The notes beneath the pieces were generated by a model. That model had not been told where the DNA came from and made no database searches. It saw only the letters and a list, made by a program, of their open reading frames with translations. Both the position numbers and the translations under genes were made by a program. Positions 62,640 to 64,000 of a DNA stretch of 64,000 nt are shown here, in pieces. Every line of letters begins with the position of its first letter. Positions within the stretch are counted from its first letter, which is position 1. Location of the stretch: NCBI RefSeq assembly GCF_055900595.2, contig NZ_CM148325.1. One strand, 5' to 3'.

Positions 62640-63223
62640 ATTTTCTCAGTTCAAGTTCAGGCTTGTAATTCTGTTCCTGTATATGCTCTTCATTGGGCTG
62701 ATAGTTTGCATGAACGGCATCGGAGTATGGTGTTTTCTCAGCAAGTTCAAAGTAGCGTTCCATCGGAGTTTTACCGTTGTGAGCGCTATGAGGACGTTCC
62801 CTGTTATAGTAATGCTACCATTCTGCTAGCAATCCCTTCAGGTCATCAGCAGAAAGATCTACGGTAGCGTAAAACTCAGCTTTGTCTGTCTTTTGGGAAC
62901 GTCCAACCTTTATTACATCAGGCGACAACTACCTTGAAAAACGCCGTTACTCACCGATCCCCTTCACGGTAATACGCACTATTGCCAGTGAGATTGAATG
63001 AAGTCGTTTTAACTCGCTTTGAATACGTCTTGCACCCAGATTTCGCTGAGAACGTAACTTCCAGAATCAGAGCGACTTCGCAAGTGCTGGTTTTCGTTGA
63101 TGGTGAACGCTTGGAGCGACGGCTGTAGCTTTCCAGACCAGCGATGCCCTGAGCCAGATATCTGCGCCACCATTTACACAATGTGGGCCGAGAAGTGCCA
63201 CAGTGACGGCATACAAATGTCAA
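62640..63223 (-). pseudogene. IS481-type transposase remnant with internal deletion
   Basis: N-terminal HTH ...TLCKWWRRYLAQGIAGLESYSRRSKRSP (62951-63223) and C-terminal tail ...YYNRERPHSAHNGKTPMERYFE (about 62640-62830) in different frames; catalytic core missing. Confidence 0.5.
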
Positions 63224-63266
63224 CGACGGATGAAAAGTGGCTCTTACGCAACCTGGATGGAGATTT

Positions 63267-64000
63267 TCATGCCAGTGGACTCATGACCCTCTGCCTGAGT
63301 AGTTCAAATCCGGCTCGACCATACATCTGGCCTTTCAGCATTTTTAGTCGATTTACATGACTTTCGACAACCCCCATTATTCCAGCGACTGCTGATTGCC
63401 TCACATATAGCCGCAGCATCAGCTGCCATCCTTGCAGCCACGCGCCGAAGTTACCACTTTCTCGTTGCTCTTTTAACCACTCCCTCCATGGGGCCAGAAG
63501 TCCTCGCTCTGGAGGCCGGGTTGACATTTCAGGGAATGTTCCTGAACACACCCAGAGACTGACTGTCACACGTGATAAGCCTGTAATACGGGATATTTCC
63601 CCTGAACCCACATCCCTTGTTATGTAGTGCCATAACCTCTGTCCAACGCTGATGCCGTTTTTGGCGGGTTTGCTGTTTAAGGCGTTCCGGACGACGGAGC
63701 GATGCTACAGGCACAGACAGTACTGGCTTAGGTGATTTCTTTGGTGACAACCCACTGGCAACAAGACGTATCAGAGGCATCTGTCTGTACATCATTCGTT
63801 CAGGCGCATCGCCAATATTTTTTAGCAGGTGCCATCGATCAGCTATCTGTCTGGCCTGAGGTGCACCTTCACGTGCTGCTGTCGCATAGACTCCGCCACG
63901 GTCACGTGAGACAACCTGTATTTCCGGATATTTTCTGAACCAGGTCGCCAGCGTACTCTGATCGCAACCGGGAAGCAGGACGAGGGGACGGTGAGTATCA
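63267..64000 (-). pseudogene. ISL3-family transposase, 3' portion, frameshifted; 5' part lies beyond the window end
   Basis: Minus-strand translation from the window edge gives ...RKYPEIQVVSRDRGGVYATAAREGAPQARQIADRWHLLKN..., then in other frames ...VESHVNRLKMLKGQMYGRAGFELLRQRV; at least two frame changes. Confidence 0.6.

Follow-up and report, generated by a model that had tools for sequence, protein, structure and literature searches.

The last 1.4 kb of the window (the whole stretch of DNA that was analysed, 64,000 nucleotides in length) consist of broken, non-functional IS copies that lie where two modules of a virulence island in the E. coli chromosome meet. The left module comprises a YadA-like adhesin and a sigma-like regulator, and the right one is the shiF-iucABCD-iutA aerobactin module. 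The features present at this junction are the following, in window coordinates:

61185-62497, minus strand: full-length ISEc39-like IS256-family element; its transposase gene (61219-62426) is annotated by PGAP as frameshifted near the 3' end.
62507-62572, no strand assigned: backbone DNA 3' of the YadA-like adhesin/sigma-like HTH module; the homology to strain FDN-11 stops at 62572.
62573-62614, minus strand: probable truncated IS3-family right end, 42 bp, inverted, adjoining the outer tip of the IS481 repeat.
62615-63217, minus strand: the whole IS481-family relic, with 96% DNA identity to the intact 1020-bp element of strain C41 (L003).
62615-62639, minus strand: terminal inverted repeat (3' or right end) of the IS481 relic, TGTGTGATTCATAGACATCGTTTCA, identical at 25/25 positions to both termini of the C41 element.
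62615-62911, minus strand: 3' part of the IS481 relic, element positions 724-1020, transposase residues 228-323.
62912-62978, plus strand: IS3-family right-end filler, the last 67 bp of an element, with its tip ...ACGCA at 62978; it fills the 379-bp deletion of the IS481 core.
62979-63217 (63218 in the alignment), minus strand: 5' part of the IS481 relic with the HTH region; it corresponds to element positions 106-344 and transposase residues 22-102.
63218-64000 and on to ~64606 past the window, minus strand: ISEc38-like ISL3 relic, with the C-terminal two thirds of the gene inside the window.
63218-63261, minus strand: terminal inverted repeat (IRR, transposase-distal) of the ISL3 relic, TGTCAACGACGGATGAAAAGTGGCTCTTACGCAACC...

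In the genomes that carry this junction, the PGAP gene order begins with the YadA-like adhesin gene and a sigma-factor-like HTH gene, followed by an 'IS256 family transposase, frameshifted', an 'integrase core domain-containing protein; frameshifted; internal stop; incomplete' and an 'ISL3 family transposase, frameshifted'. Past the window end come shiF (MFS transporter gene), iucABCD and iutA, after which another ISL3 pseudogene and an IS1 remnant precede sitDCBA and sodC. According to this order, the IS stack bounds the aerobactin module of a chromosomal island on the left. A preliminary description, made from the letters of the sequence, had placed at 62640-64000 a stack of decayed transposase genes from two IS families. 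Its coordinates and the minus-strand orientation are essentially correct, except that 62640 lies 25 bp inside the IS481 relic, past the terminal repeat. The IS481 and ISL3 families are both present, but the count has to be raised by a third family, represented by the 67-bp IS3-family tip. Decayed transposase pieces were displayed by six-frame translation of the minus strand and were then analysed by NCBIfam and Pfam profile searches, with matches well above what chance would give; an Rfam scan of 60900-64000 gave no family match.

As the earlier description had it, the relics adjoin an IS256-family element. Like ISEc39, to whose family copies it is 96% identical over 1316 bp, this element is full length and is flanked by a 9-bp target duplication, TTCAGAATG, at 61176-61184 and 62498-62506. 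It combines a Mutator-type transposase, terminal repeats and a duplication within the 8-9 bp of the IS256 family, and its ORF scored 418 bits with NF033543 and 382 bits with PF00872. The difference from ISEc39 lies in the gene, with an ORF of 386 codons (61266-62426) as against a 1208-nt gene span that is marked frameshifted by PGAP; the ISEc39-family copy of STEC1589 is likewise annotated as frameshifted. An uninterrupted empty site of the element was found in strain FDN-11 (L008) and, together with the 9-bp duplication, it indicates a clean simple insertion. When the two sequences were compared by blastn, window 62476-62572 corresponded to L008 6102-6200 and the sequences diverged past 62572.

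At the other edge of the stack, the ISL3 relic is a decayed descendant of its family and not a functional member. Two pieces matched the NCBIfam model NF033550, at positions 148-264 (E=7.4e-25, 87.8 bits) and 291-368 (E=5.7e-9, 35.5 bits), the cut-off of this model being 180 bits and the score of an intact ISEc38-family transposase 374.3 bits. The relic shares with ISEc38 (1765 bp, pE1246_1, L021, encoding the 539-aa WP_072003777.1) a nucleotide identity of 87-91%, the gene order and long terminal repeats (TGTCAACGACGGATGAAAAGTGG...). Its IRR of 44-45 bp, when inverted, has an identity of 91-93% with the opposite terminus of the elements in L006 and L021. The IRL, located past the window at ~64560-64606 in L011, is degenerate. 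The relic differs from ISEc38 by its length (~1389 bp instead of 1765 bp), by the deletion of aa 367-493, by several frameshifts, by its 400 IRL-proximal bp, which belong to a more diverged copy (~78% identical to the ColV type), and by the lack of a target duplication. The gene had been described as multiply frameshifted, which is true and understates the damage. In tblastn with WP_072003777.1 the matches fell in frames -3 (aa 30-313), -1 (aa 314-366), -3 (aa 494-505) and -1 (aa 505-539), with aa 367-493 missing. The reading frame is thus interrupted by three frame changes inside the window. In the alignment to L006, the lesions of this part are one +1 at ~63602, another at ~63375 and, between them, the loss of 347-349 bp at 63451/63452; at least six further indels follow past the window, up to ~64606. 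The homology to ColV-plasmid copies starts at exactly 63218, and the identity to these copies is 99-100% from 63218 to ~64200 and ~78% over 64218-64606. Such a hybrid profile is the trace that homologous recombination leaves when it joins two ISL3 copies that have diverged.

The surroundings of this relic vary between genomes, and three arrangements were found:

Window type: the IS481 breakpoint is followed by the IRR tip of the ISL3 relic and then by shiF-iuc-iut-sit.
CFSAN061770: the relic is inverted, so that its IRL tip adjoins IS481, and the ColV-plasmid carbamate-kinase cluster comes next.
O111:H8: the relic is cut at 63595, and there is no iuc or sit.

Different genomes thus have one IS481 breakpoint in common and differ in what lies to the right of it, which makes the site a rearrangement hotspot, in agreement with the IS hotspot and the likely rearrangements that had been proposed from the letters. 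We consider it highly probable that the locus is an IS graveyard at the seam of two island modules and that its remaining role is passive, as repeated DNA through which modules can be joined, inverted or swapped. No active enzyme can come from any of the three transposase genes, and the elements are therefore no longer self-mobile. Ends have been kept by the ISEc39-like copy and, in part, by the ISEc38-like relic, and by no other element of the stack. Transcription of shiF runs towards the ISL3 relic, which thus lies on the 3' side of shiF and does not donate a promoter.

An improbable alternative is that the 1.39-kb ISEc38-derived relic is still mobile in a non-autonomous manner, an intact ISEc38 transposase acting in trans to move or flip it, in which case the junctions at exact tips would have been made by a transposase and not by homologous recombination. 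The good outer terminal repeat has been kept, and the homology to the ColV copies begins at the tip base itself, 63218. The reading was prompted by the opposite tips of the relic that two genome types have at one IS481 breakpoint, the IRR tip in the window type and the IRL tip in CFSAN061770. The same 347-bp-deleted derivative occurs in at least three contexts. Moreover, intact ISEc38-family transposase genes are carried by E. coli plasmids. Against these points, no 8-bp target duplication was present around any copy of the relic in the contexts examined: the left flank is CATACAAA, and on the right the window type and L019 have flanks that differ in sequence. In the window copy the IRL has degenerated, and the hybrid profile, with its crossover near 64200, is a signature of homologous recombination; recombination between the near-identical 44-bp terminal repeats could also flip the relic. 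If it were true, the relic would be an active non-autonomous driver of module exchange at the island border, the modules exchanged being aerobactin and the ColV carbamate-kinase cluster. In the preferred reading, that of a passive graveyard, the dead IS copies serve as portable homology, as illustrated by the hybrid of ColV-type and non-ColV sequence in the ISL3 relic and by the other cargo found elsewhere at the same breakpoint.

A 30-bp ISEc38-type IRL tip at L011 33897-33926 prompted the reading that a split ISL3 element, or a transposon bounded by ISL3, encloses the aerobactin operon. The reading was ruled out because a degenerate IRL belonging to the relic itself precedes shiF, because the flanks show no target duplication and because the relic has no DNA relationship to the second ISL3 pseudogene, that after iutA. 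A transfer of iuc and sit from ColV plasmids together with the relic was ruled out as well, since the ColV relic adjoins IS100 and the carbamate-kinase cluster and not iuc. A megablast-level comparison with PLSDB gave no plasmid match, either to the junction on the shiF side or to the 3' end of shiF. The aerobactin iuc/iut genes of pColV-K30 are flanked by IS1. As in that plasmid, the aerobactin operon of the island is bordered by IS remnants on both sides, the ISEc38-like relic by shiF and the ISL3 pseudogene with the IS1 remnant after iutA. Here, however, the flanks are ISL3-family relics, mutually unrelated in DNA, and not IS1. A composite-transposon structure could not be shown around the aerobactin module.

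Between the ISL3 relic and the backbone lies the IS481-family relic, whose descent from a member of this family is clear. Its N-terminal piece matched NF033577 (IS481) at positions 18-93 of 284 (E=1.2e-15, 57.8 bits) and its C-terminal piece at positions 231-284 (E=1.3e-9, 38 bits), positions 94-230 of the model being absent. In Pfam, HTH_32 matched the N-terminal piece (E=1.5e-9) and rve_3 the C-terminal one (E=9.9e-8). Both fragments score below the NF033577 cut-off of 224 bits because the middle is missing; the intact C41 relative reaches 267.2 bits. That relative, 1020 bp long, ends in 25-bp terminal repeats, is flanked by a 7-bp target duplication (CCTGACT) and encodes a transposase of 323 aa (WP_021536680.1). 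The relic is 96% identical to it over the 537 bases retained, shares its 25-bp terminal repeat, its gene orientation and its HTH and rve C-terminal segments, and is 88-91% identical to copies of the family of ISEc18, the named relative. In the 3' part, 297 bp long, there are 11 substitutions with respect to L003 1501-1797, and in the 5' part, 240 bp long, 7 substitutions and one inserted A (63060) with respect to L003 2177-2415.

The relic differs from the C41 element by several severe lesions. At the 5' side, the first 105 bp are gone, and with them the start codon, 22 codons and one of the two terminal repeats, so that a single 25-bp terminal repeat is left. The core loss covers positions 345-723 (379 bp, residues 102-228) and includes the catalytic residues D140 and D195, and the third catalytic residue is changed (E231G, by an A to G at 62903). 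The DDE triad is thus not intact, and the claim that the IS481-type gene has lost its catalytic core proved right. To these lesions are added a premature stop (CAG to TAG at 62817), the +1 frameshift at 63060 and the foreign 67-bp IS3-family tip, and no transposase is encoded. The missing parts (the first 105 bp and the core) were found neither elsewhere in the window nor in the 20 kb downstream. A breakpoint shared with EHEC O157 was considered and rejected, the O157 fragment corresponding to element positions 29-379 and not to 106-344.

It is very unlikely that the N-terminal ORF of this relic (62951-63223, 90 codons, HTH) has been retained or domesticated as a DNA-binding protein, for instance as a trans-inhibitor of intact IS481-family copies. 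The ORF matches HTH_28, HTH_32 and HTH_29, and many EHEC genomes have annotated HTH-only IS481 fragments. N-terminal transposase fragments are inhibitors in other IS families, as exemplified by InsA of IS1, OrfA of IS911 and the Tn5 inhibitor, which counts in favour of such a role. The ORF, however, begins at a TTG within the ISL3 terminal repeat, its first 22 residues and native start codon being gone, and the +1 at 63060 puts the second half of the HTH region out of frame. Furthermore, as the limits of the O157 fragment (29-379) are different, there is no conserved shortened product, and PGAP annotates the gene as a pseudogene.

The 67-bp filler that replaces the IS481 core is the right tip of an IS3-family element, so that three IS families are stacked at this place. 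Its sequence is 95.7% identical to the intact IS3-family right end of BEC1-S17-ESBL-09 (L017 3001-3070) and 98.6% identical to L005. The L017 match covers the 70 bp that directly follow the stop codon of the intact IS3-family gene, up to the element terminus, ...ACGCA. The transposase of this intact element (WP_370869459.1) is made by a programmed frameshift and scored 187.7 bits with NF033516, for an IS3 model cut-off of 160 bits. The filler is accordingly the terminal sequence of an orfAB-encoding IS3-family element, of which, unlike in BEC1-S17-ESBL-09, the tip alone survives in the window. Thousands of places in E. coli carry the filler sequence, and its outer 33 bp match the right tip of ISEc12 (IS21-family). 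Its tip base, 62978, directly adjoins IS481 position 344, and at the junction TAATAAA|GGTTG the AAA is common to both partners. The IS3-family element of BEC1-S17-ESBL-09 also sits in an IS481-family copy, at L003 1713-1720 and not at 2176/2177; as the positions in the IS481-family copy differ, the two insertions are independent. Two other origins of the filler were examined. The first match, L005, lay by ISEc23 and a cdiA-like gene and suggested a CDI ('hemagglutinin') fragment or an IS66 end, a reading that was rejected once an intact IS3-family element ending in the filler sequence had been found. An origin as the 5' end of a group II intron (GTGCG) was rejected for the same reason.

A second trace of the IS3 family may be present on the other side of the IS481 relic. 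The 42 bp at 62573-62614, located between the end of the backbone homology (62572) and the IS481 repeat, are probably the inner part of a related IS3-family right end in inverted orientation. They gave with the L017 right end a short and weak match (87.5%, 28/32 bases, E=0.001 in a small search), to which an alignment by eye was added. In this fragment and in the filler alike, the break lies at one and the same hairpin loop of the IS3-family right end.

The element identities, boundaries and lesions, the empty site of ISEc39, the hybrid identity profile and the alternative arrangements in other genomes are direct observations; the order of events that follows, with its single deletion, is an inference. 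An ISEc39-like IS256 element would first have entered the backbone by a clean insertion, with the 9-bp duplication. An IS481-family element, a 96% relative of the active 1020-bp element and 90% identical to ISEc18, would then have landed by an IS3-family right end, and a second IS3-family copy would have inserted into the IS481 gene at element position 344/345. In the simplest case, one deletion that began inside IS481 at position 723, stopped 67 bp before the tip of the IS3 copy and used the 3-bp AAA microhomology could have removed both the IS481 catalytic core and the IS3 copy except for its last 67 bp. In a fifth step, an ISEc38-like ISL3 tip would have been joined to IS481 position 105/106, with the disappearance of the first 105 bp of IS481. 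The ISL3 copy may subsequently have lost 347 bp and gained frameshifts, and it would then have recombined with a diverged, shiF-linked ISL3 copy to give the present hybrid relic. The reciprocal junction to be expected if ISL3 had simply inserted into IS481, in which the ISL3 tip joins the first 105 bp of IS481, was absent from 5,426 complete E. coli genomes.

Against this stepwise history it counts that the reciprocal junction and the ISL3 target duplication are both missing and that the match of 62573-62614 is short. The two IS3-family pieces, moreover, break at the same hairpin, which the history takes as a fragile or preferred site rather than accounting for it.

The distribution of the junction was established with the stretch 62440-64000 (1561 bp), matched to complete E. 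coli chromosomes at a coverage of at least 80%. Fifty complete chromosomes carry it, among them ECCNB12-2 and SCU-115, and many of the carriers are poultry-derived. The sequence was 100% identical in 30/30 of the carriers listed, and the shorter junction 62560-62616 is present in 64 genomes, with one copy each. The possibility that the decay is an assembly or sequencing artefact and that the genes are intact in the organism is negligible, as the identity of the 30 listed carriers (out of 50) extends over different laboratories and hosts and as the lesions comprise two main deletions, of 379 bp and 347 bp, besides the 67 bp of foreign sequence. In answer to the reservation, raised with the preliminary description, that the frames might become intact after correction of sequencing errors, the lesions are not sequencing errors: they are identical in dozens of independent assemblies and include large deletions.

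The components of the stack are all decayed copies of IS families already described, with named or annotated relatives (the ISEc18 group, ISEc38, ISEc39 and the IS3-family element), and PGAP already flags these genes as pseudogenes. A literature search on ISEc18 and on shiF/ISL3 brought up nothing specific to this junction. The stack marks the left border of the aerobactin module in an island that occurs in ~1% of complete E. coli genomes, a large number of these being of poultry origin. Its nested scars provide an event order and diagnostic junction sequences by which the lineage of the island can be traced. No new biology is implied, and the value of the locus is mostly one of bookkeeping, as a record of past rearrangements.

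Other IS copies of the window had been named in support of the hotspot and were verified in part. For IS10 the outer end was located at 50597, and the IS1-like and IS3-like copies stand on the reading of translations. Relative to SCU-115 there is a 1258-bp insertion at 43401-44659, the encoded proteins of which we take to be IS3-family OrfA/OrfB. The remnant at 57042-57296 is presumably of the IS1 InsA type, as read from its translation, and the ORF at 25661-26173 is assumed to encode an IS200-type TnpA. A fragment of IS66 is also present at 57670-57919.

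The junction regions of CFSAN061770 (locus L019, 5640-7100) and of the window (63200-63300) were compared. The same IS481 breakpoint has two partners: in CFSAN061770 it abuts the ISEc38-like relic, a decayed ISL3-family element, at that element's IRL tip, and in the window type at its IRR tip. The ISEc38-like relic lies in opposite orientations in the two genome types, and the cargo following it differs as well.

The 3' piece of the IS481 relic lies between two diverged, mutually inverted sequences, each derived from the inner portion of an IS3-family right end. In both copies the break falls in the loop of one small hairpin (TGTAAT-AAA-ATTACA); this common breakpoint could be coincidental, or could reflect a fragile site or a preferred target. 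Over its outer 33 bp, the IS3-family right end shares ∼97% identity with the right tip of ISEc12, a member of the IS21 family. A terminal sequence is common to two insertion sequences from different families, and copies of this tip were found at thousands of sites across E. coli genomes.

Positions of the IS3-family right-end sequences
62585-62614 and 62909-62940: inner-part copies, in inverted orientation
62946-62978: shared 33-bp tip (also at 3501-3533 in L015/L016 and at 3038-3070 in L017, the intact IS3-family element of BEC1-S17-ESBL-09)

Transposase genes
L021 (plasmid pE1246_1) 832-2451: ISEc38-family transposase, 539 aa, with an IstA-like segment at aa 303-398
Window 61219-62426 and L009 (STEC1589) 536-1743: ISEc39-like transposase gene

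The IstA-like segment matches the N-terminal HTH region of the IS21-family IstA (E = 1.6e-16), and its presence is probably the reason why the ISEc38-family transposase exceeds typical ISL3 transposases by ∼130 aa. For the ISEc39-like gene, the annotation records a frameshift over a span of 1208 nt in the copy of the window's island as well as in the unrelated STEC1589 copy; the two copies may have this lesion in common, or it may be a trait of this IS lineage.

Other IS material is present in the window, and strain SCU-115 is devoid of the first two insertions listed below at the same locus.

Other IS material in the window (entries marked "by eye" were assigned to a family by eye from the translation)
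25575-26279: IS200-type TnpA insertion (by eye)
43401-44659: IS3-family insertion, 1258 bp (by eye)
50597: IS10 outer end
57042-57296: IS1 remnant (by eye)
57670-57919: IS66-family fragment

The YadA-like adhesin gene (58691-60385) contains ∼99-bp tandem repeats (59391-59900) whose copy number varies among strains, the gene measuring 1119, 1359, 1542, 1548 or 1695 nt in the compared genomes.

Downstream of the window, the annotations of both reference genomes carrying this island (L011 28012-29345; L001 17012-18345) give a frameshift in iucD, the gene for the lysine N6-monooxygenase that acts in aerobactin synthesis, so that aerobactin synthesis may be defective in this lineage. A second ISL3-family pseudogene, located after iutA, has no DNA-level relation to the first ISL3-family relic. 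At L011 33860-33926, ahead of sitD, a solitary 30-bp ISEc38-type IRL tip lies directly against a putative IS2-like end, so assigned by its likeness to the IS2 terminal repeat.
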